The notes: a model not told the origin generated them from the letters alone. A stretch of DNA of 64,000 nucleotides from a bacterium (GCA_963693055.1 OY843751.1:2210248-2274247), one strand, 5' to 3'; shown: positions 532 to 16,929, numbered from the stretch's first letter. Translations and numbers: made by a program.

Positions 532-557
532 GTTTTTGCCCTCATTGGTTTGTTAAC

Positions 558-1808
558 TCATTGTCCATTGGATTTATCAAATACCAGTTTTTCAATTATT
601 TGATTCTGTTTTTTATTTTCTTTCTCAAGCTCAATTACATACAAAGTCAATTCTTCAATCTTTTGCAAGAGCTTGGTTTGCATTTCACTGACCTGTATGC
701 CGTTTTCCTGCATTTCTTTTACAGAGGGGATTTCCGGCAGGTGCTTGTTTGCTTTAACGAACTGTTCTACGTGGTAAAGAGAGGGGAGGGCATAATCCTT
801 TTCGAAAACAAAATCCGCTCCGGCGTCTGCTTTTATAGTAATGTCCCGCGCGCTGATCTTGCCGTTAATGGTTAATTTTGCGTCTGTATCCGGTGAACTT
901 GTGCCAATGCAGACTTTGCCGTCATTATCAATTGCAATGCCTTCATCATCACCATCCCCGGAAATGTAATTTGAATTCAATTTAATATTGTCTGAACCAT
1001 TTATATCTATTTCTTTATTGATCTTAATATTTTGAGTGAAATTTATTATGCCATCCTGTTTAATCTCATAAATTTGAATGTCATCACCTTCTAATGCTTC
1101 TGACCATAATTCAAGATCATTATTATTTCCAGAACCGGTCCCTTCATATTTCCAATAATAACCATAATCATCTGTATTAGTACCGATCTTTAAATAAATA
1201 TCTTGATTATCAGGTGTTTGAATATCAATAGCTGTCCCTATTCCACCGCTAATACTACTAATAAATTGTTTAGAGTATACATTTTTAAAAAATTTTGTCA
1301 AAGAACCAATATTATAATAAAAATTTGTATTAGGTAATAAATTTCCTTCAGAAGTTATGATAAATCTTGGAGCATTGTTTGTCCAAAATTGTAAATCCCA
1401 ATTTTCCCGTAGTCTGAAATAACCAATTTTTGTATTTGCGTCTGTTAATAGACCTATTGAAAAACCATCTTGAGCAGTGTGACCGGAAGAGTCTGCAGTG
1501 AAATGTACATATGGTAATGTAGAGTCAAATACATGTAATTTCCGCTGTGGAAAACCACCTACACCTAAAGCTCCACTGATTGTTACATTACCGCCATCGT
1601 CTACACGAACACCTTCATTGTCACCATCATTTGACAGATAAAAATCATTCAGTTCAATGTTTTCATTTATTACTTCGGTAGTAACATTTTTTTTATCTCC
1701 CGGATTTGGGGAAGTATCTGAGGGATTATCCGCAGCTGTTAAAAATGCAGTTCCAATAAAAAGAATGAACAGAGTAAATCGTATTTGTCGTAATGATACA
1801 GAATACAT
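558..1808 (-). CDS. tail-fibre-like secreted protein, paralog family member (conserved C-terminal coiled-coil module)
   Basis: ORF 416 aa; signal peptide; NDGDNEGV..DGG.V motifs; C-terminal ...ADFVFEKDYALPSL.HVEQFVKANKHLPEIPS..EMQENG..VSEMQTKLLQKIEELTLYVIEL; GGGAGG RBS before ATG. Confidence 0.8.
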   Translation of the reverse strand: MYSVSLRQIRFTLFILFIGTAFLTAADNPSDTSPNPGDKKNVTTEVINENIELNDFYLSNDGDNEGVRVDDGGNVTISGALGVGGFPQRKLHVFDSTLPYVHFTADSSGHTAQDGFSIGLLTDANTKIGYFRLRENWDLQFWTNNAPRFIITSEGNLLPNTNFYYNIGSLTKFFKNVYSKQFISSISGGIGTAIDIQTPDNQDIYLKIGTNTDDYGYYWKYEGTGSGNNNDLELWSEALEGDDIQIYEIKQDGIINFTQNIKINKEIDINGSDNIKLNSNYISGDGDDEGIAIDNDGKVCIGTSSPDTDAKLTINGKISARDITIKADAGADFVFEKDYALPSLYHVEQFVKANKHLPEIPSVKEMQENGIQVSEMQTKLLQKIEELTLYVIELEKENKKQNQIIEKLVFDKSNGQ

Positions 1809-1854
1809 GTACGCCTCCCGAAAGTTTTATGAAATTATATAAAATGATTAGAGA

Positions 1855-1884
1855 TATTATTTAATTATTTCCCCAAATAATCCC
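1855..1884 (-). promoter_or_regulatory. conserved leader inverted repeat (TTATTT-GGGG-AAATAA variant)
   Basis: shared motif upstream of transcription-unit first genes. Confidence 0.5.
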
Positions 1885-1947
1885 ACATATGAAACGTACG
1901 AAAAAAATGATTTTTAATCAAGGAATGATAACAGGGTTTATAAGAAA

Positions 1948-1976
1948 AAAAGGGGGAAATTATTATTTCCCCCTTT
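1948..1976 (-). terminator. rho-independent terminator of gene 1991..3469
   Basis: AAAGGGGGAAATTATTATTTCCCCCTTTG hairpin followed by T-rich run. Confidence 0.6.
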
Positions 1977-1990
1977 GTGTATGAGGATAA

Positions 1991-3469
1991 TTATTTAGAG
2001 TTGATGATTGTTCTTAATTCTTGATTTTCGTTTTTCAGTTCAGATATTTCTTTTTTCATATCTATCATATACAAGGTCATTTCTTCAATTTTCTGCAAGA
2101 GTTTAGTTTGCATTTCACTCACCTGCACGCCGTTTTCTTGCATTTCCTGAGCGGAGGGGATTTCCGGCAGGTGTTTGTTTTCTTTAACGAACTGTTCTAC
2201 GTGGTCAAGAGAGGGGAGGGCATAATCCTTTTCGAAAACAAAATCCGCTCCGGCGTCCGCTTTGATAGTAATGTCCTGTGCGGTGATCTTACCGGCGACA
2301 GTGAGTTTGGAATCATTTTCTGGTGAACTTGGACCGATACAGACTTTTCCGTCAAAGTTGATTGAAAGACATTTATGTTCTCTTGTAAAAAAAGACATTT
2401 CATCAATTTGATGATCATAGTAAATTCTACCTCTTGTAACACTTGTATTACTACCAAATAAAATACAGCCTTTACCAGTATTGGGACATAATAAGCTGAT
2501 TCCTGTATTATTATTTGTTTCTAAAACCAGGTCATCGCTTGCACTGTTTGCTGGCATAGCCCCGGAACTCCCCATTCGTGAATGGATAGGATATAACGGA
2601 GAGGTGTTAATTCCCAGTTTATCGCTTACCATTACGTCCCCATCATTTTCAACCTGTACGCCTTCATTACTACCATCGTTTGATATAAAGTTAGAATTTA
2701 ACTTTATATTTCCATTAAATTGTATATTTCCGGTACCTGCTGGAGTAAGTTGAATACTGTTATTGTTATATAGTGCTTTAATATCCATGTAACCTTCTGC
2801 GTTCCATCCATAGCGTGCTACATCAGTATTATTTGATTTTATTGTAATCTCTGAAGTTTGTGGTCCTGTACCGCTTTTATTAAGAGTTAACAGGCTGGTA
2901 GGAAAAATTCCTATACCTATTTTATGAGTTATTTTTACATCGCCATCATCTTCAACAATAATACCTTCATCGTCACCATCATTAGAAATGTAATTACTGT
3001 TTAAATTAATATTCGAATTATATAGTATTACTTTATTATCAACAATTTGCAATCTTCTTTCTTGATAGTTAGTATTACCAGACCAAACATTAAATCCCTG
3101 ATATGTACCTGTTCCGCCACTACAGATGAATTGTAATCCTCCTGCTGCAGCATCACTAAACTGATACCCAAGCCATACATTATCATCATAATTTTGACCT
3201 GCAAAAGTACCCCCTATACCTGTAAATAGAGCTCTGCTGTTTGGTTGAGAAATTTTACTTATTATTCCACTATTATCACCCGGGCTTTTTACTTCAAAGA
3301 AATAAGTGGGGGAAACCCCTATACCCACTTTGTCGTTTGTAGTAATTTTATCTGTACTATCATTCACCCAGTCATCGGCAGATGTATCTTGGGCCAAAAT
3401 AAAATTGAAACAACATAATACCAGAATTATCGAGAACGACAAGTTTTTCCATATGGAATTGTTTCTCAT
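1991..3469 (-). CDS. tail-fibre-like secreted protein, paralog family member
   Basis: ORF-track ORF extends to 3583 but the GGGAGG RBS + signal peptide MRNNSIWKNLSFSIILVLCCFNFILAQDTSADDWV start at rc-ATG 3467-3469; same C-terminal module. Confidence 0.75.
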   Translation of the reverse strand: MRNNSIWKNLSFSIILVLCCFNFILAQDTSADDWVNDSTDKITTNDKVGIGVSPTYFFEVKSPGDNSGIISKISQPNSRALFTGIGGTFAGQNYDDNVWLGYQFSDAAAGGLQFICSGGTGTYQGFNVWSGNTNYQERRLQIVDNKVILYNSNINLNSNYISNDGDDEGIIVEDDGDVKITHKIGIGIFPTSLLTLNKSGTGPQTSEITIKSNNTDVARYGWNAEGYMDIKALYNNNSIQLTPAGTGNIQFNGNIKLNSNFISNDGSNEGVQVENDGDVMVSDKLGINTSPLYPIHSRMGSSGAMPANSASDDLVLETNNNTGISLLCPNTGKGCILFGSNTSVTRGRIYYDHQIDEMSFFTREHKCLSINFDGKVCIGPSSPENDSKLTVAGKITAQDITIKADAGADFVFEKDYALPSLDHVEQFVKENKHLPEIPSAQEMQENGVQVSEMQTKLLQKIEEMTLYMIDMKKEISELKNENQELRTIINSK

Positions 3470-3516
3470 CAAAGCCTCCCTTGAGAAAATAAAATTGAAT
3501 GAATAAAACAGAAAAT

Positions 3517-3545
3517 GTTTATTTGATAGACAGCCCCAAATAAAC
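3517..3545 (-). promoter_or_regulatory. conserved leader inverted repeat GTTTATTTG-N11-CAAATAAAC
   Basis: read directly; 9-bp arms. Confidence 0.5.
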
Positions 3546-3606
3546 CCACGATGAAAAGTACAGAATTTGGACATGGAAATCAATGTGTAAATTGGAAAAG
3601 ATAAAA

Positions 3607-3634
3607 AAATGACAACAGATTTCTGTTGTCATTT
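3607..3634 (-). terminator. terminator hairpin after gene 3643..5115
   Basis: AATGACAACAGATTTCTGTTGTCATT. Confidence 0.5.
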
Positions 3635-3642
3635 AATGTATT

Positions 3643-5115
3643 TTATTGCTCAAGGTCAATGATGCGGGATTTTAATGAGAAGATTTCGTTTTTCATTTTA
3701 TTGTTTTCACTTATTATTGCCATATTTTCTTTTTTCATTTCAATCATGTAAAGCGTTAGTTCTTCAATTTTTTGCAAGAGTTTAGTTTGCATTTCACTCA
3801 CCTGTACTCCGTTTTCCTGCATTTCCTGAGCGGAGGGGATTTCCGGCAGGTGTTTGTTTTTTTTAACGAACTGTTCTACGTGGTCAAGAGAGGGGAGGGC
3901 ATAATCCTTTTCGAAAACAAAATCCGCACCTCCGGCATCTGCTTTGATAGTAATGTCCTGTGCGCTGATCTTGCCGGCGACGGTGAGTTTGGAATCAGAT
4001 TCCGGTGAGTTTGTACCAATACTGACTTTACCATCAGATTTAATTGTAACTCCTGAAGTAGTTGAACCTGCTGTACCGATATACATTTCATCAGTTGGAT
4101 TGTAATAGTGTATTATTCCTCTACTTATTTGATCTTTATCACCAATATGAATTCCACCTACACCCTGAATACCGGTACCGGATTCTCCGGCAATTATACC
4201 TAATATAGAGTTATTCGTTGTTTCAATATTATTTTGAAATAATGCTACATGTGATCCTACCGATGGCGTGGCACCTTCACCATTCGGCCCGATAACATGT
4301 AATCTTTTTAAAGGATTTAATGTACCAAGTCCCAAAAATCCGTTTGAACTTTTTATAAACATTGCTTCTTTATGCGATCCACCGGCTCCAATTGCCAAAC
4401 CGGTTACACCATCTCCTCCACTTCGTATTATCGGATAAATGGATTGTGTCCCATCTGCCTTGTAGCCAATAATTAAACCGGATTCTGATGTGTTTGTTCT
4501 TCCGAACCATGAAACACTGTAATCTGTAGAAGAAATACCCCCATTTGATCTCACTTCAAAATTATAATTGGGGCTTCCGTTAATTCCCAATTTATTGCTT
4601 ATTATTACATCTCCATCATCTTCGACTGAAATACCTTCATCATCGCCGTCCCCTGAAATATAATTAGAGTTTATTGTAATATTACTGCCAAAGGATACTT
4701 TTCCATCCGATTTAATTGTGACTCCTGAAGTGGTTGAACCTGCTGTACCAATGTACATCTCATCAGTTGGATTGTAATAATGTATTATACCTCTATTTAT
4801 TTGATCTTTATCACCTATTTGAATGCCACCGACACCCTGAATTCCGGTACCAGATTCACCAGCAATAATTCCTAATACTGCGTTATTTGTAGATTCTACA
4901 TTGTTTTGAAATATTGCTACCTGTGATCCCAGCGATGGTATAGAACCTTCACCATTTGGACCGATAACATGTAATCTTTTTAAGGGATTTATTGTGCCAA
5001 TACCAACATTTGTTGTTGTTGTTGTATTCGTACCATTTGTAACCCAGTCATCATCACTGGCTAAAAGGTTCATAATATAAATAAAGAACAACAGAAAGCA
5101 GAGTTTGCATTTCAT
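3643..5115 (-). CDS. tail-fibre-like secreted protein, paralog with internal ~105-aa tandem duplication
   Basis: 490 aa; SP MKCKLCFLLFFIYIMNLLASDDDWVTNGTNTTTTTNVGIGT; duplicated block LNPLKRLHVIGPNGEG...TIKSDGKVS; conserved C-terminal module. Confidence 0.8.
   Translation of the reverse strand: MKCKLCFLLFFIYIMNLLASDDDWVTNGTNTTTTTNVGIGTINPLKRLHVIGPNGEGSIPSLGSQVAIFQNNVESTNNAVLGIIAGESGTGIQGVGGIQIGDKDQINRGIIHYYNPTDEMYIGTAGSTTSGVTIKSDGKVSFGSNITINSNYISGDGDDEGISVEDDGDVIISNKLGINGSPNYNFEVRSNGGISSTDYSVSWFGRTNTSESGLIIGYKADGTQSIYPIIRSGGDGVTGLAIGAGGSHKEAMFIKSSNGFLGLGTLNPLKRLHVIGPNGEGATPSVGSHVALFQNNIETTNNSILGIIAGESGTGIQGVGGIHIGDKDQISRGIIHYYNPTDEMYIGTAGSTTSGVTIKSDGKVSIGTNSPESDSKLTVAGKISAQDITIKADAGGADFVFEKDYALPSLDHVEQFVKKNKHLPEIPSAQEMQENGVQVSEMQTKLLQKIEELTLYMIEMKKENMAIISENNKMKNEIFSLKSRIIDLEQ
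3999..4989 (-). repeat. intragenic tandem duplication (two ~315-bp copies, ~85 % nt identity) in gene 3643..5115
   Basis: copies approx 3999-4314 and 4674-4989. Confidence 0.7.
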
Positions 5116-5149
5116 TTCATTCTCCCTATGAATTCAATAAATTTGCTAA

Positions 5150-6115
5150 TTAATTATTCTCTTTAAGTATCTCGATTTCCTTTTTTAATTCAATTACATA
5201 CAAAGTCAATTCTTCAATCTTTTGCAAGAGCTTGGTTTGCATTTCACTGACCTGTATGCCGTTTTCCTGCATTTCTTTTACAGAGGGGATTTCCGGCAGG
5301 TGCTTGTTTGCTTTAACAAATTTTTCAACATGATCAAGAGAGGGGAGGTTATAATCTTTTTCGAAAACAAAATCAGCGCCACCGGCATCGGCCTTGATGG
5401 TAATGTCCTGTGCGCTGATCTTGCCAGCAACAGAGAGTTTGGATTCATTTTCTTGTGAACTTGTTCCGATATAGACTCCATCGCTTGCAATTATCATTCT
5501 GTTTTTATTTTCTGTGAAAAACCAAATTTCATCAGTAGGGTGATTATAATAAATTCTTCCAACAGTTGGGTTGCCTTCATCTGCGAAAAAAATTGAACAT
5601 TGTCCACTACTAGGACTTAATAAACTGATCCCTGTATTATTATTTGTTTCTAAGACCAAGTCATCGCTTGCACTACTTGCTGTGGCTCCGGAACTCCCTA
5701 GTCGTGAATGTATATTATATAAAGGAGAAGTATTAAAACCAATTTTATTTTTAATAATTACATCTTTATCATCTTCAATTTCAATTGCTTCATTATTATT
5801 TGTTCCAATACTGAATGAATTAGTTGAGTGATTGTACCTGATATAGCCTCTGGCATTGTCCCCGGGATCCGTACCATCGGCGAAATAGATGGAACCAATC
5901 CCGCTTGTATTAGATGCAATAGTTAATCCCCCATTACCGCTTTCATAAATAACCAAATTGTCTGCGTCCGAATGATATATAGTTGTAGTATTGATACCAA
6001 TTCCAACACTTCCGGTTGTTGTTGTTGAAACAGATGAGCCTTCCCAGGTGTTTTGAGCCCATACAAAGCTGCCGAATAAAATTAAACACAAGAATGTGAT
6101 AGTTAATTGTCTCAT
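5150..6115 (-). CDS. tail-fibre-like secreted protein, paralog family member
   Basis: 321 aa; SP; TTTTGSVGIGINT; conserved C-terminal module; AAAGGAA RBS. Confidence 0.8.
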   Translation of the reverse strand: MRQLTITFLCLILFGSFVWAQNTWEGSSVSTTTTGSVGIGINTTTIYHSDADNLVIYESGNGGLTIASNTSGIGSIYFADGTDPGDNARGYIRYNHSTNSFSIGTNNNEAIEIEDDKDVIIKNKIGFNTSPLYNIHSRLGSSGATASSASDDLVLETNNNTGISLLSPSSGQCSIFFADEGNPTVGRIYYNHPTDEIWFFTENKNRMIIASDGVYIGTSSQENESKLSVAGKISAQDITIKADAGGADFVFEKDYNLPSLDHVEKFVKANKHLPEIPSVKEMQENGIQVSEMQTKLLQKIEELTLYVIELKKEIEILKENN

Positions 6116-6163
6116 GCTGTATTTCCTTTCTGAATTGTCGATGAGTTGTGATTTACGTAAAGT

Positions 6164-7678
6164 TTAATGACGTTCCAATTTCGAGAGTCTTGATTCAAGT
6201 GCTTTAATTTTTTTATTTTGTTCAATAATGTACAATGTCAATTCTTCAATTTTTTGTAAATGAAGAATTTGCATTTCACTGACCTGTATGCCGTTTTCCT
6301 GCATTTCTTTTACAGAGGGGATTTCCGGCAGGTGCTTGTTTGCTTTAACAAATTTTTCAACATGATCAAGAGAGGGGAGGTTATAATCTTTTTCGAAAAC
6401 AAAATCAGCGCCACCGGCATCGGCCTTGATGGTAATGTCCTGTGCGCTGATCTTACCGGCGACAGTGAGTTTGGAATCATTTTCTGGTGAACTTGGACCG
6501 ATACAGACTTTTCCGTCAAAGTTGATTGAAAGACATTTATGTTCTCTTGTAAAAAAAGACATTTCATCAATTTGATGATCATAGTAAATTCTACCTCTTG
6601 TAACACTTGTATTACTACCAAATAAAATACAGCCTTTACCAGTATTGGGACATAATAAGCTGATTCCTGTATTATTATTTGTTTCTAAGACCAGGTCATC
6701 GCTTGCACTGTTTGCTGGCATAGCCCCGGAACTCCCCATTCGTGAATGGATAGGATATAACGGAGAGGTGTTAATTCCCAGTTTATCGCTTACCATTACA
6801 TTTCCATCATAATCAATTTGAATACCTTCATTGCCACCATCACCAGATATAAAATTTGAATTCGTTCTGATGTTACCATTACATTGAATATATCCCGTAC
6901 CGGATGGGGTGAGAAGAATATTGTTATTACTATAAAGAGCTCTTATATCCAGATAACCACTAGCATTCCATCCATAGCGTGCCACATCTGTATTGTTTGA
7001 TTTAATAGTAATCTCTGAAGTTTGTGCTCCTGTACCGCTTTTGTTAAGGGTTAACAGGCTGGTAGGAAAAATTCCTATACCAATTTTATTTGTTATTTTA
7101 ACATCACCATCATCTTCGATTTGAATTCCTTCATTATCACCGTCATTGGAAATATATTTGCTATTTAATTGAATGTTACCCAGGTTTAAACCAAGGTTAC
7201 CTGTTTCATCAATTTCAATTGTTTTTCTCCATACACCATTTATTCTTTGGAAAATTCCAAATTTAGTATCTTCAGAACCTGCAGTCAGGTCAATATATTG
7301 CATACCAATACCACCCATATGCGCAGTACTGCCGGATAAATTTCTTGCCCCAAATAAATAACCCGCATACGTATTATTTAGTTGACTGTCATTAAATGTC
7401 TCGAATCCCCATGAACTCCCATTAGCACCAAAATTTGTATCAGAATATGTAAATACTGCTCGTATTTCAGCCTCACCACTTGCACCTGTCCAGGTTCCGT
7501 TGTTCATTTCCAAGCCTCCATTAGAAATTTCAACATTCCCCGTTGTTGTTGTATTGCCACTTCCATCAGTTGTCCAGCTGTCGTCGGTAGTATCATCAGC
7601 CGCCGAAAGTTTTATCGGATTCATTGCGAAAACAATTATTACAATAACTAACAGAATGAAACAGGATTGCCTTTTCAT
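6164..7678 (-). CDS. tail-fibre-like secreted protein, mosaic paralog
   Basis: 504 aa; SP; DDSWTTDGSGNTTTTGNV; 3' third is a near-exact nucleotide mosaic of genes 5150..6115 and 1991..3469. Confidence 0.8.
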   Translation of the reverse strand: MKRQSCFILLVIVIIVFAMNPIKLSAADDTTDDSWTTDGSGNTTTTGNVEISNGGLEMNNGTWTGASGEAEIRAVFTYSDTNFGANGSSWGFETFNDSQLNNTYAGYLFGARNLSGSTAHMGGIGMQYIDLTAGSEDTKFGIFQRINGVWRKTIEIDETGNLGLNLGNIQLNSKYISNDGDNEGIQIEDDGDVKITNKIGIGIFPTSLLTLNKSGTGAQTSEITIKSNNTDVARYGWNASGYLDIRALYSNNNILLTPSGTGYIQCNGNIRTNSNFISGDGGNEGIQIDYDGNVMVSDKLGINTSPLYPIHSRMGSSGAMPANSASDDLVLETNNNTGISLLCPNTGKGCILFGSNTSVTRGRIYYDHQIDEMSFFTREHKCLSINFDGKVCIGPSSPENDSKLTVAGKISAQDITIKADAGGADFVFEKDYNLPSLDHVEKFVKANKHLPEIPSVKEMQENGIQVSEMQILHLQKIEELTLYIIEQNKKIKALESRLSKLERH

Positions 7679-7725
7679 GGAAAATCTCCCTCAAATTTAT
7701 GAATGTTTAAATGATTGAAAAGGTA

Positions 7726-7753
7726 TTATTTGATAACTTCCCCAAATAATCCC
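7726..7753 (-). promoter_or_regulatory. conserved leader inverted repeat
   Basis: TTATTTG-N10-CAAATAA; whole intergenic region about 95 % identical to 1855-1976. Confidence 0.5.
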
Positions 7754-7817
7754 ACATATAAAACGTACGAAAAAAAGGTTTTTTAATCAAGAAATGATAA
7801 TAGGAATTATAAGAAGA

Positions 7818-7845
7818 AAGGGGTAAATCATTATTTACCCCTTTT
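7818..7845 (-). terminator. rho-independent terminator of gene 7858..9206
   Basis: AAAGGGGTAAATcattATTTACCCCTTTT. Confidence 0.6.
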
Positions 7846-7857
7846 ACAGGAAGAAAA

Positions 7858-9206
7858 CTATTTAGAAGTGATAATTGCTTTTAATTCCTGATTTTCGTTT
7901 TTTAAGTCTGAAATGGTATTATTCTGTAATTCAATTTTTTTATTCATATCAATTACATACAATGTCAGTTCTTCGATTTTTTGCAAAAGTTTGGTTTGCA
8001 TTTCACTCACCTGCACACCGTTTTCCTGCATTTTCTGTGAGGAAGGTATTTCCGGCAGGTGTTTGTTTTGTTGTATAAATTGTTCAACATGCTGAAGAGA
8101 GGGAAGGGCATAATCCTTTTCGAAAATAAAATCCGCTCCGGCGTTTGCTTTGATAGTTATGTCTTGGGCACTGATTTTACCGGCAACGGTGAGTCTGGCA
8201 TTTACGTCAGAAGATGTGGTACCTATACATAAATTCCCGCCATTAAAATACGAATTTCCATTGGGATGAAGTTGTACTGTAATATTACCTTCATTGGTTG
8301 TACAGTTATACAGTCTCAACACATTGTTGGACAAAACCATTTGCGGTACCCAGCTAATTCCTCCTGAAGCATGACCCCATTTAAAGATTTCACCATCTCT
8401 AAAACCCCTGAACCGGAACTCTCCGGTACCCGCGTCTATATAATCAAGGAATAATCCAGGGTACAGATTATCATTTGTTGCACCAATGGCAGTATTTCCT
8501 CGTACATCCAGTTTAGAATCAGTATGATATACTGAAGTTGAACCGATTATTACGTTACCATCCGAGTCGATCCTCATTTTTTCCTGTCCCAATGTGTTGA
8601 ATGACATTGAATTGTCTGTATTATCATATCTGATTTGACCTTCCGAATCTTTTTCTTCATCACCAAACAGGATGCCAGCAACATCGTTAAGCTCAGTGCC
8701 GGTACTTACAAGACTGAGCCATGTATTTGCGCCATTTTGTATAACAAGTTTTCTGCCCGGATTGTTTGTTCCGATACCAACATTTCCACCGGTAAAATAA
8801 GTATTGCCGCTGGGATGAAGCTGTACGGTGATATTGCCTTCATTGGTTGTACTGTTATACAGTCTCAGCACATTGTTGGATAAAACCATTTGCGGTACCC
8901 AGCTAATTCCTCCTGAAGCATGACCCCATTTAAAGATTTCACCATCTCTTATGCCCCTGAACCGGAACTCTCCGGTACCCGCGTCTATATAATCAAGGAA
9001 TAATCCAGGGTACAGATTATCATTTGTTGTACCAATGGCACTATTTCCCCGCACATCCAGGATATACCCCGTGTAATTGGTAGATGTGCCTATACCCACA
9101 CTGCCGTTAGTACTGGTTTCTACAGATGAATTGTTCCAATAGTCCACTGCCAAAATAGTGTTCAAAAACCTGCAACCATTAAAATAATGAAGACCAATTT
9201 TTTCAT
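7858..9206 (-). CDS. tail-fibre-like paralog, frameshifted (signal peptide in -1 frame relative to body)
   Basis: body ORF (7858..9255) lacks a signal peptide; rc-ATG at 9204-9206 (overlapping upstream stop as ATGA) encodes MKKLVFIILMVAGF then hits TGA; a 1-nt slip at the T5 run (A5 at 9164-9168 on + strand) joins it to ...LNTILAVDYWNNSS..GSVGIGT. Confidence 0.6.
8217..9063 (-). repeat. intragenic duplication (two ~300-bp copies, ~95 % identity) in gene 7858..9206
   Basis: copies approx 8217-8517 and 8763-9063 (protein ...DVRGN.AIG.TNDNLYPGLFLDYIDAGTGEFRFRG... twice). Confidence 0.7.
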
Positions 9207-10912
9207 AGAGATTCCCTTCCAGTATTATTGAATTTAGTTGTTTTTTCGAGTTCATCAATTCTTGCTTCTAGTTTTTTATTATATTTATCCTGATTAATAA
9301 TATACAGGGTCAATTCTTCAATCTTTTGCAAAAGTTTGGTTTGCATTTCACTCACCTGCACACCGTTTTCCTGCATTTCCTGTGAGGAAGGTATTTCCGG
9401 CAGGTGTTTGTTTTGTTGTATAAATTGTTCAACATGCTGAAGAGAGGGAAGGGCATAATCCTTTTCGAAAACAAAATCCGCGCCACCAGCATCGGCCTTG
9501 ATGGTAATATCCTGAGCACTGATCTTGCCGGCAACAGTGAGTTTGGAACCTGATTCAGGATTGCTGCAGCCGAGAATCACTGAACCATCATAGAGTATCC
9601 TCATTCCTTCATTATTTGTACCAACTCCTAAAATTAATGAACCGTTTTCGGTTGACCTGCCTCTTAAAACAGTATCCCCTGCTTTGCTTCCATTAATGAA
9701 ATTATCATTACCAGTTGCTATTCCAAAGAAAGCCCTGTCAGAATCAATATTGTCAGTATTATTTGTGTTAAGCCGGATTTGAGGTGTGGTTGTTTTGGTT
9801 ATCAGAATTATTCCTTCATCCAAATGCATCTTTTGCAAAGGATTGGTAATACCGATCCCTAAATTCCCTCCAAACCTTTGTAGAATCAATGGTTTCACTC
9901 CAACTCCGTCGTGAGTAGCTTGTATAAATCCCTGATCATTTGTTATATCAAAGCCTATTTGCATTTCTTTAGCTGCGTTTGTTTGCCCTCCGATTATCAG
10001 TTGCGGATTGCTTGTTCCATTCCAATCGCCACGAATTGTCAGAACAGCATTTGACGATCCTGTTGCCTGAACTGTTCCTCCCAATACTACATCACCATTT
10101 ACATTTAATTTTGTGGTAGGAGAGGGCGTACCAATACCCAGATTCCCATTTTCATCCAGTACCATTCTGTTTATTTCAGCGTCAACATCTCTGAAAATCA
10201 GTTTGCCTGCTCCTGATGTAGCAACGTTTGCGGTACTACCAATCATATATGACTTACCGTTGGAATTGGGTTCCGCATTTAAATAAATCCCAGGTCCATA
10301 CCCATTACCTGCCCTGGTTACTTTTATATTTCCATCAACATTCAATCGTTCAGTTAAAGTTGTGGTGCCTATTCCAACATTACCCGTTATATTGGTGTCC
10401 CAGTTTAGATCTATTCCATAATCATCAATGATAATTGCATCATTATAATACCAATTATTTCCTGTTCCAAGTTTATCATAATATCTTCTTGTGCCTATAT
10501 ACATTCTGCCTGTTGCATTGCTATTATTGGTATTTGCTGGAGTAACCAGGATTCGCCCTTGTCCCCATTGTCCTGAACCGTCGGTTGATGAAGGTGCTGT
10601 AAACTCTAACATTGAACCTGATTCTGTAGTTCTTGAAGTATTATTGGCATGTATGATAAAAGCATTATTCTGATCTGTAACAGTGTTTATTGTAGTTGCT
10701 GATGTAAAAACGAACCGGGCACGTCCGCCGGAAAAGTCAAGTTTGTAAGTTGGAGTGATTCCAATACCTACATTAGTTGTCAAAGTAGTTGTACTGCTGC
10801 CGGATGTTTCCCAATCATCATTTGTTGTGTCTTGTGCAGCAAGGTTATAAAAGAAGCAACTAATAAAAAACAGGATATTGATTAATCCAAATAGCCATTG
10901 ATTCGTTTTCAT
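9203..10912 (-). CDS. tail-fibre-like secreted protein, paralog family member
   Basis: ORF to 10984 in track; GGAGGAAAGG RBS and SP MKTNQWLFGLINILFFISCFFYNLAAQDTTNDDWETS favour start 10912; conserved C-terminal module. Confidence 0.75.
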   Translation of the reverse strand: MKTNQWLFGLINILFFISCFFYNLAAQDTTNDDWETSGSSTTTLTTNVGIGITPTYKLDFSGGRARFVFTSATTINTVTDQNNAFIIHANNTSRTTESGSMLEFTAPSSTDGSGQWGQGRILVTPANTNNSNATGRMYIGTRRYYDKLGTGNNWYYNDAIIIDDYGIDLNWDTNITGNVGIGTTTLTERLNVDGNIKVTRAGNGYGPGIYLNAEPNSNGKSYMIGSTANVATSGAGKLIFRDVDAEINRMVLDENGNLGIGTPSPTTKLNVNGDVVLGGTVQATGSSNAVLTIRGDWNGTSNPQLIIGGQTNAAKEMQIGFDITNDQGFIQATHDGVGVKPLILQRFGGNLGIGITNPLQKMHLDEGIILITKTTTPQIRLNTNNTDNIDSDRAFFGIATGNDNFINGSKAGDTVLRGRSTENGSLILGVGTNNEGMRILYDGSVILGCSNPESGSKLTVAGKISAQDITIKADAGGADFVFEKDYALPSLQHVEQFIQQNKHLPEIPSSQEMQENGVQVSEMQTKLLQKIEELTLYIINQDKYNKKLEARIDELEKTTKFNNTGRESL

Positions 10913-10943
10913 CTTTCCTTTCCTCCAATGAGATAGAATTTGA

Positions 10944-12695
10944 TTAATTGTTTTGAATTGTTTTGATCCATTTTTTGATTTCACTGTTTTCTTTTTTTAT
11001 GGAATCATTTTCTTTTTTTAATTCAATGACGTATAATGTTAATTCTTCTATTTTTTGTAACAGATTTGCCTGGAACTCACCAATATCAATTCCCTTATTT
11101 GTTGCTTCATCTGCGGAAGGAATACCGGGCAGGTGTTTATTCTGGTGGATAAATGCTTCGGTTTCTTCTATAGACATGAGGTCATAATCATCTTTAAATA
11201 CATAATCAGGTAATGATTCCTGCTGTAACTGGATTTCCTGTGCTTTGATTTTATTGTTTACAACCAGTTCTTTATTTACAGTTACCTGGTTATCCGTATT
11301 TATTGACATTGATACATTATCAGATTCATCGAGAAAAATTATATTATTCCCTTTAATACCCACGGGAGTTGTCCAATCGTTACCGTTATATGCGTCCCAT
11401 AGCATCGTACTTAGTCCACTATTATAATATAATCGTCCTTTTAACAATCCATTACTATTTATACCAATCGAGCCATTAATATCCAGAGTATGGGTGGATT
11501 CCATATTGATACCCAATTTATTTATCTGTGTATAAGCATTTTCCAGATTTATATCAAAAATATTTACATAATTAGAACCACGGATAAATAAATGTTTTGA
11601 GGTTCCTGATTGCTCTTGAATATAAAAATTTCCATTTGCCACTGACATAGACCAATCCATATTTACATCATCTTCTGAAAACCATATAACCGGAGAAGCA
11701 CTTTTAATTTGAAATGAATAATCTGGAGATATTCCAATACCTATTTTGTTGGAAATAAATATATCTCCATCATTTTCCACTTTAATTCCTTCATCATCTC
11801 CATCACCTGATAAAAAATTGGAATTCAGTATGATTTTACCAGTAAGTAAATTCAGATCACCACCTGCATTAATATCAATTAACGGTGTTGAGAAATTTGT
11901 AAATCTAAAGAGAGGTCTGGCATTGACTGTAGTAAATGTTCCGTTTATGGGATCGCCACTGTGAAGTTGACCAATAAATGTTATTAGGGGAACATTTCCA
12001 ATGTCATATTCACTTGTAGTCATTCCCTGGAATATTAATGAATGCCTGGTACTGGATGGAGTTGTACCATAAAAAGCTGGTTCAAATATTCCGGTAGAAT
12101 ATGTAGAATTTTTAATTCCGAATTGATATCCGGTTGCATCACTTACTGTCGCTTTTATAATACTTTCACGGCTCGTTGATTCTGCTAAAGAAACAATATC
12201 AATGGTTGAATTAATATTTGTTGTATTAACGCCTAATTTTCCATTTTCATTAACCCTGAATAATTGTGAGTTTATGTCATTATTATGACTTATAATTAAT
12301 GCAGCATTTTCGTCATTTGTATCCGAATCCAGGTCGATAATGTAATTTCTTAAACCCGATGTCCAGGCATCCCTTGTATCTGTTAGTCGTGTACCGAATA
12401 TTGCATTATTGATTTTTATTTTGTCTAAACCATATGTAGTTCCAATTGTTAATTTTTCTGTTGGATTAATTCCGATTCCCAGTTTACTACTTGCGACTAC
12501 ATCGCCATCATTTTCAACAGTGATTCCTTCATTACCTCCATCATTGGACAGGTAATACCCATTGAGAGAAATGTTTTCGGTAAGCACTTCATCAATACTG
12601 TTACTTGAAGAATTCTCAACAGCAACCAAAAAATTTACCATTGAAAAAAAGAACAACAAAAACAGTTTACCTGTACACATTGTAAGGTTTTTCAT
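10944..12695 (-). CDS. tail-fibre-like secreted protein, divergent paralog
   Basis: SP MKNLTMCTGKLFLLFFFSMVNFLVAVENSSS at rc-ATG 12695 with AAGGTGGG RBS; divergent C-terminal module ...NKHLPGIPSADE..LLQKIEELTLYVIELKKEN. Confidence 0.75.
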   Translation of the reverse strand: MKNLTMCTGKLFLLFFFSMVNFLVAVENSSSNSIDEVLTENISLNGYYLSNDGGNEGITVENDGDVVASSKLGIGINPTEKLTIGTTYGLDKIKINNAIFGTRLTDTRDAWTSGLRNYIIDLDSDTNDENAALIISHNNDINSQLFRVNENGKLGVNTTNINSTIDIVSLAESTSRESIIKATVSDATGYQFGIKNSTYSTGIFEPAFYGTTPSSTRHSLIFQGMTTSEYDIGNVPLITFIGQLHSGDPINGTFTTVNARPLFRFTNFSTPLIDINAGGDLNLLTGKIILNSNFLSGDGDDEGIKVENDGDIFISNKIGIGISPDYSFQIKSASPVIWFSEDDVNMDWSMSVANGNFYIQEQSGTSKHLFIRGSNYVNIFDINLENAYTQINKLGINMESTHTLDINGSIGINSNGLLKGRLYYNSGLSTMLWDAYNGNDWTTPVGIKGNNIIFLDESDNVSMSINTDNQVTVNKELVVNNKIKAQEIQLQQESLPDYVFKDDYDLMSIEETEAFIHQNKHLPGIPSADEATNKGIDIGEFQANLLQKIEELTLYVIELKKENDSIKKENSEIKKWIKTIQNN

Positions 12696-12736
12696 AGACC
12701 CACCTTGATTTTTTGATATGATTAAATAATGAAAGT

Positions 12737-12765
12737 GTTTATTTGATTTGAATCCCCAAATAAAT
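12737..12765 (-). promoter_or_regulatory. conserved leader inverted repeat GTTTATTTG-N10-CAAATAAA
   Basis: read directly. Confidence 0.5.
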
Positions 12766-12826
12766 CCACAATTATTATACAAAAATGGACTCTATTATCC
12801 AATTACTAAATGACGATTTGCAAATA

Positions 12827-12859
12827 AAAAAGGGACAATTTATTAAAACTGTCCCTTTT
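12827..12859 (-). terminator. rho-independent terminator of gene 12889..14265
   Basis: AAAAGGGACAatttattaaaacTGTCCCTTTT. Confidence 0.6.
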
Positions 12860-12888
12860 AAAATCAGTAAATTATTGTGGATCAATAA

Positions 12889-14265
12889 TTATTTTGTTTT
12901 TAGTAAAATATTTTTTTCCAGTTTTTCAATTTTTTTATTCATCTCTATCATGTGCAACGTCAGTTCTTCAATCTTTTGTAAAAGTTTGATCTGCATTTCA
13001 CTCACCTGTACTCCGTTTTCCTGCATCTCTTTTGCAGAGGGGATTTCCGGCAGGTGCTTGTTTTCCAGAACATACTTTTCAACATGTGCAAGAGAAGGGA
13101 GGGCATAATCATTTTTGAAAACAAAATCCGCTCCGGCGTCCACTTTGATGGTAATATCCCGTGCGCTGATTTTGCCGGCAACTGTGAGTTTCGCATCAGC
13201 AACAGGAGATGTAGTTGATGTACCAATACAAACTTGTCCATTAGAATCGATTGAGATGCCTTCATCATCGCCATCACCTGAGATATAGTTGTTATTTGTA
13301 TTAATCGTTCCTTGTAGATTAATATTGCCAGCTGAGCCCGCAACCAACTTTAACATTCCTGGAGAAATTGCATGGTTTTCACCATAGCTTACAATATATG
13401 ACCCCCTGTTTGAACTGATCCCGCCTCCACCGGAAATAGCGACTGATTTTTCATCATTCCCTGTTGTTGTGTTTGTTCTTAAAGTTGTTGTTGATAGTCT
13501 TCCAATAAATGCACCGTTACATTCGATATTGCCTGAGAATGAAGCTATACCTGAATCTGATATTTGTAATCCTTCATCGTCACCATCATTTGAAATAAAA
13601 TTATTATTCATCTCAATATTTGTATTTGTAAACCTGAATGTTCCTTCATTTTCATCAAATCTTCCAACTTCAATGCCATTATTTACATGAAAAACAATAT
13701 CTGCTATATTCCCGGATGAAAAGCCCAAAGCACCTGATGAAGTCATTTTTACAGCAGAGCCTCCCCAACCATTGAAATTCAGTGAAGCTGAATTGTTTAA
13801 TTTAGAAAATTTAACATCCCCATCATTCCCTATTTGAATACCTTCATTATCCCCATCATTTGAAAGATAATTCGAATTTAATATTAAATTTCCATTATTA
13901 AGATGGATATTATCATTTTGATCAATTGATAATGAAATTCTTCCGGCAGTACTGTTAACTATTTGAAAGTAATCTAAACCTGTACCTGAACCGTTGACTC
14001 GCATTGTCCATTCTCTGGCGTCATTTTGTAAACGTAATGTTGCATTTTGGTTCAATGTTGTTGATTTAATTCTCAAGTCAGCCACAGATGTTTGAATGTC
14101 AAAATCATAATTAGGAGATAAACCAATACCCACATTGCCAGTTGTTGTTGTATTGCCATTTCCATCAGTTACCCAGTTATCATCTGATGCTTGTATAGTA
14201 CATGAATAAAAAATAGCAATAAAGATACTGATGAAAAATTTTTTTAACATGGATACAGATTTCAT
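12889..14265 (-). CDS. tail-fibre-like secreted protein, paralog family member
   Basis: 458 aa; SP; SDDNWVTDGNGNTTTTGNVGIG; GDGDDEGI repeats; conserved C-terminal module; GGGAGG RBS. Confidence 0.8.
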   Translation of the reverse strand: MKSVSMLKKFFISIFIAIFYSCTIQASDDNWVTDGNGNTTTTGNVGIGLSPNYDFDIQTSVADLRIKSTTLNQNATLRLQNDAREWTMRVNGSGTGLDYFQIVNSTAGRISLSIDQNDNIHLNNGNLILNSNYLSNDGDNEGIQIGNDGDVKFSKLNNSASLNFNGWGGSAVKMTSSGALGFSSGNIADIVFHVNNGIEVGRFDENEGTFRFTNTNIEMNNNFISNDGDDEGLQISDSGIASFSGNIECNGAFIGRLSTTTLRTNTTTGNDEKSVAISGGGGISSNRGSYIVSYGENHAISPGMLKLVAGSAGNINLQGTINTNNNYISGDGDDEGISIDSNGQVCIGTSTTSPVADAKLTVAGKISARDITIKVDAGADFVFKNDYALPSLAHVEKYVLENKHLPEIPSAKEMQENGVQVSEMQIKLLQKIEELTLHMIEMNKKIEKLEKNILLKTK

Positions 14266-14317
14266 GTTCGCCTCCCTAAATACATTAAAGAATTTGTGTA
14301 AATAGAATGATTAATGT

Positions 14318-14346
14318 GTTTATTTAATATACATCCCCAAATAAAT
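14318..14346 (-). promoter_or_regulatory. conserved leader inverted repeat
   Basis: GTTTATTTA-N11-CAAATAAA downstream of promoter 14356-14384. Confidence 0.5.
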
Positions 14347-14355
14347 CCTCGAAAG

Positions 14356-14384
14356 AATATAGATATATATTTTGAGTGAATCAA
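14356..14384 (-). promoter_or_regulatory. sigma70-like promoter for the unit 12889..14265
   Basis: minus strand TTGATT-17 nt-TATATT. Confidence 0.45.
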
Positions 14385-14400
14385 TGAATTGTTGAAAAGA

Positions 14401-14432
14401 AAAAGGGGAGACGTGGAATAATTTCTCCCCTT
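14401..14432 (-). terminator. rho-independent terminator of gene 14449..15444
   Basis: GGGGAGAcgtggaataatTTCTCCCC + TT. Confidence 0.55.
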
Positions 14433-14448
14433 AATAGTTAATAGGATT

Positions 14449-15444
14449 TTATTTTGCAGAAATCATTTCTTTTAAACGATGATTTTCTTTTTCAAGTGAA
14501 TCTACTTTTTTATTCACTTTTATCATGTGTATTGTCAGTTCTTCGATTTTTTGTAAAAGTTTGCTTTGCATTTCACTCACTTGCACACCGTTTTGCCGCA
14601 TTTCCTGTACTGAGGGGATTTCCGGCAAGTGCTTGTTTTTCTGTATAAACTGTTCAACGTATTCAAGTGAAGGGAGCGCGTAATCTTTTTCAAAAACAAA
14701 ATCCGCACCGGCGTCCACTTTGATGGTAATATCCCGTGCGCTGATTTTGCCGGCAACTGTGAGTTTCGCATCAGCATCAGGAGATGTAGTTGATGTTCCA
14801 ATACAAACTTGTCCATCAGAATTAATTGAAATGCCTTCATCGTCGCCATCATTTGATATATATTTTGTGTTAATCTTTAAATTTGCACCAAATGCAATAG
14901 CATCAGGTGTTGCTGAGTTTTGTTCAAACCAGAAAAAACTTTTTCTGTATGTGTAATCGTCATTCATTGCCTGAAAATACAGATTACCTAATGTTGTGTT
15001 AATTCTCCAATTCTTTTGGTTAGTTGCGACATCATTTTCTTCAAATAATAATTCTGGACTATCTCCATAGACATGTAATAATGATTGCGGATTGGTTGTA
15101 CCAATTCCAACTTGACCACTATTTTTTAGAAACAATGTGTTTTTTAAAATTCCATCTAGTTGTGTTCGAAATTGTAGATTCAAGTTTGTGGTTCCAGATT
15201 CATCTCGTGCTTGAATAAAGGCAGTTCCGGAAGTACCCTCACCATTATAAGAATACAAATAAATATGCCCTCTTCCGTAATAATCGCCATTTACATGTAA
15301 TGATTTTTTGGGATTTAATGTCCCTATCCCAACACTACCGTTTGTAGTCGTTTCAACTGTTGTTGAACCATTCCAGTAATCTTTACTCATAGATTTATTG
15401 CTAAATAAAAATAAAAATGCAAATATCATAATATGCTGTTTCAT
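14449..15444 (-). CDS. tail-fibre-like secreted protein, paralog family member
   Basis: 331 aa; SP; KDYWNGSTTVETTTNGSVGIGT; conserved C-terminal module; AAGGAG RBS. Confidence 0.8.
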   Translation of the reverse strand: MKQHIMIFAFLFLFSNKSMSKDYWNGSTTVETTTNGSVGIGTLNPKKSLHVNGDYYGRGHIYLYSYNGEGTSGTAFIQARDESGTTNLNLQFRTQLDGILKNTLFLKNSGQVGIGTTNPQSLLHVYGDSPELLFEENDVATNQKNWRINTTLGNLYFQAMNDDYTYRKSFFWFEQNSATPDAIAFGANLKINTKYISNDGDDEGISINSDGQVCIGTSTTSPDADAKLTVAGKISARDITIKVDAGADFVFEKDYALPSLEYVEQFIQKNKHLPEIPSVQEMRQNGVQVSEMQSKLLQKIEELTIHMIKVNKKVDSLEKENHRLKEMISAK

Positions 15445-15632
15445 TCATGTTCTCCTTATAAAATGAGATTTTTTATTTATTTTTTAAAAAAAATATGCAA
15501 TTTGTATGGGAATCCAATAAATTTTAAGGAAATAAACTTAACTTTTTAAGCTAATTTTTATAATTAATACGTGTTGACATTTTTTTCAAGAATGTAATAT
15601 TTTAATTAACTTTTAAACGAACAGTTGTTGCT

Positions 15633-15895
15633 TTATCCAATACTGAGTTTTCCGCTTATAAACACATCTCCATCATTTCTATTTGAGATCTTCATTATCT
15701 CCATCATTAAACAGGTAATCCTGTTGAGAGATATGTTATCATCGAGTATAAGCATATCTTCAGTATTGTTATAATTTTGGCTGTTAATCCTATTGCCGGT
15801 ATTTTTTGCATTTTTAACAGCAATGAACAAGTTTCCCAATAAAAAAAAATGAGCAACAAAAATAATCTGCCAGTAAGCATTGCCATGTTTTTCAT
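15633..15895 (-). pseudogene. 5' remnant of a tail-fibre-like paralog (signal peptide + first repeat, frameshifted, body deleted)
   Basis: two overlapping small ORFs MKNMAMLTGRLFLLLIFF... and ...ISNRNDGDVFISGKLSIG resemble the N-terminus of 10944..12695 (MKNLTMCTGKLFLLFFF...NDGGNEGITVENDGDVVASSKLGIG); preceded by a copy of the family leader motif. Confidence 0.6.
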
Positions 15896-15934
15896 TGTAC
15901 CGACTTAATTTTTTTATAATTGATTGAAGGAAAG

Positions 15935-15965
15935 TGTTTATTTGTTTTACAACACGAAATAAACC
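15935..15965 (-). promoter_or_regulatory. conserved leader inverted repeat upstream of paralog remnant
   Basis: GTTTATTTG-N12-(C)AAATAAAC. Confidence 0.4.
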
Positions 15966-16495
15966 AATAACGAAATATACAAAAATAGGATAAGTAAATC
16001 AATGTAGTAAGTTGGAATGATATTAAAAGGAAAACAGAATTTTATTGCCTTTAAATTCTGGGGGTGGTGCTATACATGAATATAAACTATAGGGTATAGG
16101 TTCCGAATGTACCTATGAAGGAATGAACCGATGTCTTCAATCAATAGTATCCAACTTGAGGTGTATTCTGCTAGCTAAAGGCTGTCATGCACTCCGCTAA
16201 GGGAGTTTTTCCTCTATCACTTTCCAATTTTAAATTGGATGAATTGTTAAAAGTACTTAAACGTCGAATTCACCAGTTTGTATAATACCCATACGTATAT
16301 GCTGATTTAGAACAAATCAATACAAGTTGGTAATTGGTATATTTCAATTCGTCCAAAAAAGAGGGCCCTAATGGAGAAACAGGCTAGAATCCCTACCTAA
16401 CAAAGTATAGAGGAGACTGTCGTATCGTAGGTGCGCACGATGCAATGAGAGGAGATGAGGCAGATAAATATCCTCCCTCATCTCTATCTCGATTA

Positions 16496-16798
16496 TTATA
16501 TCTCAAGAAGTGGGTTCTTCATCATATCCGATACATTAGAAAAGTCTGATAATTCCGGATGAGTATAAATATCCGTAGTTGAAATGGATGAATGTCCCAG
16601 AATCTCTTTGATCAAAATTGGATTTTTTGTAAGACGCATGGCGTTTGTTGCAAAACTGTGTCTAAACCATTTAGGAGAATAACGGGAGTCCAATCCACTT
16701 AGCTCTAAATATTTCTTGAATATTTTTGAGGGTCTTGAACGTTCATGTAATTTGTCATAATTAATTTGAGGAAAGACCCGTTCAGAAGTTTTGGGCAA
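16496..16798 (-). pseudogene. tyrosine recombinase/integrase, C-terminal catalytic fragment only
   Basis: ...WFRHSFATNAMRL...ILGHSSISTTDIYTH motifs (R-H-R-Y box II); only ~100 aa; N-terminal two-thirds missing; IS3 element immediately upstream. Confidence 0.6.
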
Positions 16799-16929
16799 GG
16801 ATTGGGGCGCTCCCCATTGTTTAGACAGTTTTAGGTATTATTTAAGGTGTGGAACATCTTTGGTGATAACTTCAGGAGCCCGTAGGGCGACTGGAGTTAT
16901 CACCAAAATAGCTAATTAATTTTCCACGT

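Follow-up and report, generated by a model that had tools for sequence, protein, structure and literature searches.

Stem-loops at the very 5' end of a transcript prolong the life of mRNAs such as ompA, papA and aprE, according to references given in PMC3997798, and the references given there also include cryIIIA, in which a Shine-Dalgarno-like stabiliser (STAB-SD) lies near the 5' end. CIRCE, in turn, is a 9-bp inverted repeat at heat-shock promoters that is bound by the dimeric repressor HrcA (PMC7760821). Here we describe an AT-rich inverted repeat that has features in common with both. It is present in six copies (u1 to u6) in a stretch of bacterial DNA of 64,000 nt (GCA_963693055.1 OY843751.1:2210248-2274247; hereafter the window), where it is located in front of tandem paralogous genes for tail-fibre-like surface proteins, all of them encoded on the minus strand (Table 1).

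Similar to the leaders of ompA and papA in E. coli and of aprE in B. subtilis, the array leaders have a hairpin which is predicted to start a few nucleotides from the 5' end of the mRNA, and the encoded proteins are in both cases abundant and either secreted or located at the surface. As in these leaders and in STAB-SD, an unstructured leader with a strong ribosome-binding site follows, and a G-rich Shine-Dalgarno-like tract is found near the 5' end. However, the array stem consists of A-U pairs and is weak, and the array element differs from ompA, papA and aprE in conserving its sequence besides its pairing and in being common to six units of one paralogue array. Unlike the hosts of these systems and of cryIIIA, the array host is an uncultivated bacterium of the Fibrobacteres-Chlorobi-Bacteroidetes (FCB) group. 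The likeness to CIRCE concerns the 9-bp inverted repeat itself, the spacer of about one helical turn, the position at or just after the (here predicted) transcription start and the repetition at each operon of one group. The CIRCE consensus TTAGCACTC-N9-GAGTGCTAA is not matched, the array arms being (G)TTTATTTG and CAAATAAA(C) with a spacer of 10-11 nt. Furthermore, the array genes encode fibre-like surface proteins instead of chaperones, the inner flanks of the arms are asymmetric, and no HrcA-like regulator was identified.

All six copies reported in the original prediction were detected on the minus, i.e. the sense strand, and they share the consensus GG(G/A)(A/T)TTATTTGGGG-N7-(C/T)AAATAA(A/T)(C/A). 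The original prediction described AT-only arms of 7-9 bp flanking a spacer with four G residues. While the palindrome is indeed present in all six copies, the strict pattern TTTATTTG-N6-16-CAAATAAA occurs in two copies only (3518-3544 and 12738-12764; 0.00 expected), the other four differing from it by one base in an arm, and GGGG directly follows the left arm in five of the six copies, u6 having CGTG instead. The looser pattern TTATTT-N10-14-AAATAA yielded nine matches in the 64 kb compared to 0.43 expected, six of them being the elements. A covariance model built from the six copies and run with the filters off recovered exactly these six at 50.6-59 bits, whereas the next site in the window reached 15.9 bits. 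Within the window, the element is thus restricted to the array, as had been proposed. Operon-internal genes (3643-5115, 5150-6115, 7858-9255, 9203-10912 and the eleventh gene, which starts at 531) are without copies, as expected, and the best model score at gene 14449-15444, which also has no copy of its own, is 9 bits. Rfam gave no match at the gathering score in the whole window and none at the six sites even at E <= 5 (positions 1-17000). The string TTTGGGG is altered (to TTTCGTG) in u6 only, the copy that precedes a pseudogene. Since this sole copy lacking GGGG and the closing pair of the hairpin heads a frameshifted pseudogene, a constraint on both features in the five intact units is suggested.

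The position just downstream of a sigma-70-like promoter is supported by a conserved -35/-10 pair at a fixed spacing in front of every copy. The geometry is constant in all six cases and comprises TTGATT (TTGGAT in u4), exactly 17 nt, TAnnnT and a purine 6-7 nt further on as the predicted start, 3-5 nt past which the left arm begins; the arms are separated by a loop of 10-11 nt. The promoters were assigned because TTG...17...TA is invariant in otherwise diverged sequence and not because of a motif scan. Between the end of the right arm and the ATG there are 38-52 nt, including a strong GGGAGG-like Shine-Dalgarno sequence in front of the ATG, so that the element lies upstream of the first gene as predicted but within a narrower distance than the proposed 40-100 nt. 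Upstream of five of the six promoters the intrinsic terminator of the preceding gene was detected, one of which (14400-14430) has a hairpin loop too long for the terminator scanner. Because of these terminators the array appears as a series of self-contained units of one to three genes each. The statement that the element marks every transcription unit is slightly overstated: units u1 to u5 are headed by it, but u6 heads a frameshifted fragment, and gene 14449-15444 is either read through from u6 or has a promoter of its own.

Folding of the RNA from the predicted start resulted in the same hairpin for each copy, with energies of -3.7 to -9.3 kcal/mol. RNAalifold, applied to the whole leaders (predicted start to codon 6), returned this hairpin as the only consensus structure and left the Shine-Dalgarno sequence unpaired. 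Eight arm pairs are formed in all six copies, and in the nine-pair structure 90.7% of the cells are paired compared to 31-54% if the 3' partner is slid by 1-3 columns. A single pair is compensatory, u1 and u3 having A-U where the other four copies have U-A. At the closing position three copies form G-C and u6 has C-C, while G-U is found in u1 and u5, two copies that are not sisters. The two independent C-to-T changes giving G-U are tolerated in the sense-strand RNA only; likewise, G16-U26 is a pair in RNA and a mismatch in the DNA dyad. The loop is 11 nt long except in u1 and u3, where it has 10 nt.

These observations bear directly on the possibility that the element acts as a DNA operator. 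A dimeric transcription factor would bind both 8-9 bp arms, 10-11 bp apart and at +4 to +30, and would repress (or activate) all units in a CIRCE-like manner; a dual role in DNA and RNA, of the kind discussed for CIRCE, is included here. Such an operator would account for both arms being near-invariant in sequence beyond mere complementarity, for the fixed distance to the -10 hexamer and for the confinement of the element to one gene family, and it has a precedent in the 9-bp inverted repeat of CIRCE with its dimeric repressor (PMC7760821). Compared to a generic symmetric homodimer operator, however, only the arms are mirrored. The dyad symmetry is broken further inwards, where the left arm is followed by a conserved GGG and the right arm is preceded by a conserved AT, and the spacing of the arms varies by 1 bp. 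The half-sites are furthermore non-identical (G vs T) in two copies, which is harmless only as a G-U pair in RNA, and in u1 and u3 the half-site change affects both arms in mirror fashion, for which a fixed protein would have no need. In the window, no regulator gene adjoins the array; the closest gene for a DNA-binding protein encodes a LuxR-type response regulator 10 kb off. An operator function seems rather unlikely, though it is the alternative we take most seriously. The frame of the original prediction, a leader RNA element or an operator, is the right one, and it is supported as regards the position, the family specificity within the window and a sequence identity of 75% in the element compared to 55-61% in its surroundings. 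Within this frame the evidence leans to the RNA option because of the compensatory pair, the G-U changes of the sense strand, the 10/11-nt loop and the non-mirrored inner flanks, although it comes from six related copies and effectively one covariation event.

In pairwise comparisons the copies share 75% identity over the 40-nt element, in which the loop is variable, and 61% over the 45-nt promoter region. Farther upstream, in the downstream leader and in the first 30 codons the identity is 55-56%, which is about the level of a gapped alignment of unrelated AT-rich sequence. Conservation is focal and concentrates on the TTG of the -35 hexamer, the TA of the -10 hexamer, the arms with GGGG and the Shine-Dalgarno sequence. 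The promoters of u1 and u3 are 89% identical, the other copies not being so close, and the two appear to be a recent duplicate pair. The segment duplicated between them extends from the 3' end of a gene over the terminator and the next promoter to the element (e.g. 1945-2050 vs 7811-7900). Moreover, the paralogues are mosaic, with a long near-identical central and C-terminal block common to 1991-3469 and 6164-7678. Judged from these alignments, the segment duplication and the mosaicism suggest recent segmental duplication or gene conversion.

The likeness of the six copies could be no more than a relic of duplication, the promoter and leader having been copied with the genes and kept similar by inheritance or gene conversion, with no function beyond that of the promoter. 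The units are indeed paralogues with a mosaic structure, u1 resembles u3 in the 3' end of the upstream gene, the terminator, the promoter and the element (74-89% identity), and the element is absent from all other searched lineages that carry the family. A relic would not be expected to show the focal conservation, in which near-invariant arms and GGGG contrast with a -35/-10 spacer, a loop and a downstream leader that are no more similar than random sequence. It would also not explain that pairing was maintained through a double change or that the sole copy deviating in GGGG heads a pseudogene. Taking this into account, we regard a mere relic as improbable.

The explanation we favour, with a confidence that falls somewhat short of even, is that the element forms a 5'-terminal stem-loop of each array mRNA, which would protect the 5' end and/or bind a shared factor. 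Transcription would start from the sigma-70-type promoter TTGATT-17-TAnnnT at the purine 3-5 nt before the left arm and, with the start placed there, the transcript would begin with G(U/A)GG(G/A)(U/A)UUAUUUGGGG...(C/U)AAAUAA(A/U). The nascent 5' end would fold at once into a stem of eight A-U pairs, closed by G-C or G-U and extended by one more G-U pair, with a loop of 8-9 nt in the folded hairpin that has GG first, and the rest of the leader (~40-50 nt) would be A/U-rich and unstructured with the strong Shine-Dalgarno sequence (GGGAGG) at its end. As a shared post-transcriptional module the hairpin may shield the mRNA from decay that depends on the 5' end, and the invariant stem and the G-rich loop probably dock one common factor, by which all units of the fibre array would come under the same control. 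Whereas the six copies, their specificity, the fixed geometry, the conservation above that of the flanks and the maintained pairing are direct observations, the start site, the action as RNA and the stabilising or factor-binding role are our inference from them.

Several points weigh against the proposed stem-loop. The stems are all A-U and weak, and their z-scores against shuffled sequences are only -0.6 to -2.1. The covariation comes down to a single event, shared by two copies that are closely related, and a score at least as high was obtained in 17 of 500 shuffles. The start site is a prediction from the TTGATT-17-TAnnnT geometry only, and sigma-70-like hexamer pairs are not enriched in this AT-rich sequence (76 compared to 74.3 in shuffles). 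As the six copies are paralogous, part of their similarity stems from descent or gene conversion, and the element was found in no independent lineage among the loci, viral contigs and metagenome contigs searched. Finally, the arm sequence is near-invariant while the flanks are saturated with changes. Pairing alone is insufficient to explain this invariance and sequence-specific recognition is therefore implied, which fits recognition as DNA equally well.

If the stem-loop exists as proposed, it would be a new, lineage-specific sequence version of a known kind of cis-element and, as such, an ordinary control element. It would offer a handle on the co-regulation of a large mosaic tail-fibre-like family in an uncultivated KSB1-like bacterium, the family being widespread in Bacteroidota yet without a Pfam or NCBIfam model. 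It would also constitute a portable 5' module of compact design, in which promoter and hairpin are combined with an A/U-rich leader and a strong Shine-Dalgarno sequence, originating from a phylum without genetic tools. The contrast with the packed arrays of relatives may inform on the evolution of array expression; beyond these points no long-standing question is opened.

Sigma-dependent pausing at -10-like elements is known from the late promoters of lambdoid phages. In the array, TATTTG and GGG at about +8 to +16 could similarly serve as a -10-like element with a G-rich discriminator that causes such pausing, or the left arm could represent the -7 box of a Bacteroidota-type promoter. In favour of this, TTATTTGGGG is conserved as a strand-asymmetric block at a constant spacing from the -10 hexamer, and the host belongs to the FCB group. 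Nevertheless, an initiation signal of either kind seems very improbable: it leaves the equally conserved right arm and the compensatory change unexplained. A Bacteroidota-type promoter (-33 TTTG / -7 TAnnTTTG) was rejected, the left arm (T/A)TTATTTG having no TA at positions 1-2, where TAnnTTTG requires it, and the upstream TT(T/C)G being 15-17 nt away instead of 19-21 nt.

The array also resembles the vsp, vpma and vsa loci of Mycoplasma in being a tandem family of variable surface-protein genes with conserved 5' leaders and a tyrosine recombinase gene at the locus edge. This raised the question of a recombination site, in which the palindromes would be tyrosine recombinase core sites at which units are excised, inserted or reshuffled, as in vsp/vpma or in integron cassettes. 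In the M. agalactiae vpma locus the recombinase xer1 is accompanied by proposed sites in conserved 5' untranslated regions, and the vpma promoter, like those of the array, has a T-run just upstream of the -10 hexamer (PMC2268961). In the window a 100-amino-acid (aa) C-terminal catalytic part of a tyrosine recombinase (16496-16798, minus strand; Phage_integrase, 1.5e-12; RHSFAT...LGH...Y) is encoded 530 nt upstream of u6 beside an IS3-family insertion sequence (IS; 16930-18046, minus strand; orfA 17762-18046, orfB 16930-17625).

The recombinase appears to have been truncated by this IS element, and the region beyond the IS yielded no N-terminal part. Furthermore, all six sites are co-oriented on the minus strand, as are the genes, which makes inversion impossible, and each site has its own promoter-like sequence; the choice among paralogues that had been suggested thus finds no support. 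For strand exchange, the partner sites normally have to be identical over a short crossover region (6-8 bp). The spacers of the array are 10-11 nt long and, except for the leading GGG, vary in sequence from copy to copy, for which reason we rejected core sites of the lox/FRT/dif, attC or vsp/vpma type. Switching of the vsp/vpma type was rejected as well, in view of the recombinase fragment, the single orientation of the sites and the six promoter-like sites. The break points of similarity between units are located near the -35 hexamer or the start codon and hence outside the element. Recombination at the palindromes is consequently to be considered highly unlikely. We give even less credit to the specific version in which the palindromes are targets of a dedicated recombination system with 16496-16798 as its local remnant, an intact copy acting from elsewhere and promoter-bearing fibre cassettes being excised, captured and re-ordered. 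If this were true, an FCB-group bacterium would possess a variation system resembling integrons or vsp loci, in which a site between promoter and gene re-pairs the two.

Further classes were considered and rejected. An intrinsic terminator or attenuator does not agree with stems of A-U only that are followed by ACAC/AUAU without a T-run, and the true terminators lie upstream of the promoters. For a sigma-54 promoter (GG-N10-GC; TGGCAC-N5-TTGC) the sequence TGG...TTTGG has its TTG two bases too close and lacks GC. The loop and right arm can be read in frame as xxx-AT(C/T)-AAA-TAA, but the start codons of such a leader peptide are inconsistent. A G-quadruplex is not possible with one G-run per element, and an anti-Shine-Dalgarno structure or thermometer lacks a C-rich or U4 partner, in line with the unpaired Shine-Dalgarno sequence in the RNAalifold result. 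The leader of the filament-protein gene hag in B. subtilis is of the CsrA type with two sites. The array recalls it in that four of the six copies have GGA in the hairpin loop, with GGA occurring once more 45-55 nt downstream, within the Shine-Dalgarno sequence. In contrast to CsrA-type leaders, the array conserves GGGG and not GGA (the intact u2 has GGGGC), and no csrA gene was seen.

The array comprises at least 11 paralogues, of which ten are complete. The eleventh (our protein P0019, 488 aa) begins on the minus strand 27 nt beyond gene 558-1808, with no element between the two, and extends beyond the left boundary of the window. Elsewhere, the same 6.5-Mb contig carries at least six more paralogues (P0007, P0009, P0010, P0011, P0015 and P0098). 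All ten complete paralogues have a common C-terminal domain of ~100 residues behind variable repeat-rich N-terminal parts. Its consensus in the array is ...KLTVAGKISAQDITIKADAGADFVFEKDYALPSL.HVEQFV..NKHLPEIPS..EMQENG..VSEMQ.KLLQKIEELTLY..., and all ten show the pattern of a C-terminal family of Bacteroidota 'tail fiber proteins', ...ADFVFE.DY.L.SL...F...NKHLP.IPSA.E....G....E...KLLQKIEELTLY. The Pfam and NCBIfam models did not match the paralogues, while the N-terminal repeats of one paralogue matched phage tail-fibre PHROGs (2.7e-11). A search of the array proteins against solved structures detected no relative of the C-terminal domain. The structure predicted for paralogue 14449-15444 (mean predicted local distance difference test score, pLDDT, of 60.7; a long C-terminal helix only) was too poor for a fold search and was not used. 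The closest named relatives of the OmpA-family gene in the window are 'candidate division KSB1' (73%) and Calditrichota (70%); the host is an uncultivated KSB1-like bacterium of the FCB group.

The C-terminal domain is common in Bacteroidota. In bacterial genomes 558 matches were confirmed by tblastn, the best 80 of the 558 belonging mostly to Bacteroidota with 48-65% identity, and the names given to family members in the sources include 'tail fiber protein'. Only four viral contigs carry the domain. Exact matches to the element were absent from the 80 genome loci carrying the family. The covariance model found nothing above 22 bits in 1.27 Mb of family loci in other organisms plus eight further loci (86 kb), ~1.36 Mb altogether. 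The exact-pattern scan of viral contigs gave 50 single matches, which are attributed to chance, none of them having the GG prefix or a downstream family gene, and the five matches of the promoter-plus-element pattern in metagenome contigs were all unrelated. In other organisms 10-20 genes of the family are packed closely together in an array and leave few intergenic gaps, and neither an analogous palindrome nor a Shine-Dalgarno sequence was recognised by eye in the gaps of the related arrays at loci L136, L137 and L142-L144. Since these arrays are tightly packed and lack the palindrome, the division into promoter-hairpin-gene-terminator units is a feature of the present lineage. The long arrays of other organisms are followed by a conserved set of genes encoding proteins of ~160, 425 and 115 aa, a prepilin-type N_methyl protein and a T2SSF platform protein (L137, 15939-19623; L144, 13263-16977; L143, 9076-9558; L145, 7435-7917). 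This gene order hints at a link of the fibre-like proteins to type II secretion or type IV pilus-like machinery.

Table 1. Features of the fibre-gene array in the window. Element sequences are given as left arm - loop - right arm; bits refer to the covariance model.
Feature	Coordinates	Strand	Details
Element u1	1856-1881	-	ATTATTTG - GGGAAATAAT - TAAATAAT; model match 1850-1888, 50.6 bits; RNA fold -5.7 kcal/mol
Element u2	3517-3545	-	GTTTATTTG - GGGCTGTCTAT - CAAATAAAC; model match 3512-3551, 57.4 bits; RNA fold -7.8 kcal/mol
Element u3	7725-7750	-	ATTATTTG - GGGAAGTTAT - CAAATAAT; model match 7719-7757, 55.4 bits; RNA fold -9.3 kcal/mol
Element u4	12738-12764	-	TTTATTTG - GGGATTCAAAT - CAAATAAA; model match 12732-12771, 59 bits; RNA fold -6.4 kcal/mol
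Element u5	14319-14345	-	TTTATTTG - GGGATGTATAT - TAAATAAA; model match 14313-14352, 55.8 bits; RNA fold -3.7 kcal/mol
Element u6	15937-15963	-	TTTATTTC - GTGTTGTAAAA - CAAATAAA; 51.2 bits; C-C closing mismatch; heads decayed gene fragment
Promoter-like site u1	1893-1921	-	TTGATT-17-TACGTT; predicted start G at 1886
Promoter-like site u2	3555-3583	-	TTGATT-17-TACTTT; predicted start G at 3549
Promoter-like site u3	7762-7790	-	TTGATT-17-TACGTT; predicted start G at 7755
Promoter-like site u4	12774-12802	-	TTGGAT-17-TATAAT; predicted start G at 12767
Promoter-like site u5	14356-14384	-	TTGATT-17-TATATT; predicted start A at 14349
Promoter-like site u6	15974-16002	-	TTGATT-17-TATATT; predicted start A at 15968
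Intrinsic terminator after gene 1991-3469	1945-1976	-	just upstream of u1 promoter
Intrinsic terminator after gene 3643-5115	3603-3630	-	upstream of u2 promoter
Intrinsic terminator after gene 7858-9255	7811-7841	-	upstream of u3 promoter
Intrinsic terminator after gene 12889-14265	12826-12855	-	upstream of u4 promoter
Terminator-like hairpin and T-run after gene 14449-15444	14400-14430	-	upstream of u5 promoter; read from sequence
Unit u1	1-1808	-	paralogue 558-1808 (416 aa) and eleventh paralogue
Unit u2	1991-3469	-	single paralogue, 492 aa
Unit u3	3643-7678	-	paralogues 6164-7678, 5150-6115 and 3643-5115; gaps of 48 and 34 nt
Unit u4	7858-12698	-	paralogues 10944-12698, 9203-10912 and 7858-9255
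Unit u5	12889-14265	-	single paralogue, 458 aa (P0001)
Gene fragment behind u6	15630-15894	-	frameshifted 5' part of a paralogue like gene 10944-12698 (three-frame translation); signal peptide and first NDGDNEG repeat, disrupted by several frameshifts
Complete paralogue	558-1808	-	
Complete paralogue	1991-3469	-	
Complete paralogue	3643-5115	-	
Complete paralogue	5150-6115	-	
Complete paralogue	6164-7678	-	
Complete paralogue	7858-9255	-	
Complete paralogue	9203-10912	-	
Complete paralogue	10944-12698	-	
Complete paralogue	12889-14265	-	
Complete paralogue	14449-15444	-	331 aa, without own element, downstream of u6 fragment

Outside the array, the window has genes for TonB-dependent receptors, for cargo of type IX secretion and for glycoside hydrolases. 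On the plus strand, a LuxR-type response regulator is encoded beside a baeRF family 3 (release-factor-like) protein (25623-27269), a small RRM_1 RNA-binding protein of 103 aa was detected at 30618-30929 and a second IS3-like element at 38792-40103. The use of Shine-Dalgarno sequences is mixed in the genome: the array genes have the strong GGGAGG, and many of their neighbours have none, as in Bacteroidota (e.g. the TonB-dependent receptor genes at 40402 and 47207). Other intergenic AT-rich palindromes are present at 47145-47168 (plus strand), 50356-50377 and 29972-29996. With model scores of about 9-10 bits they bear no relation to the array element; one of them, TTATTTCACC-AAAA-GGTGAAATAA, lies 40 nt upstream of the TonB-dependent receptor gene at 47207.

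In Mycoplasma surface-protein families, runs in the promoter spacer drive phase variation by slipped-strand mispairing. The -35/-10 spacers of the array also contain simple runs, which are short, namely T7 in u1 and u3, T5 in u4 and u6 and (AT)4 in u5 (minus strand; 1899-1915, 7768-7784, 12780-12796, 14362-14378 and 15980-15996). In addition, a second short motif, (TC)AATCA(T/A)T, is found in most leaders 5-15 nt 3' of the hairpin, e.g. at 1843-1849, 7706-7713 and 14306-14312.

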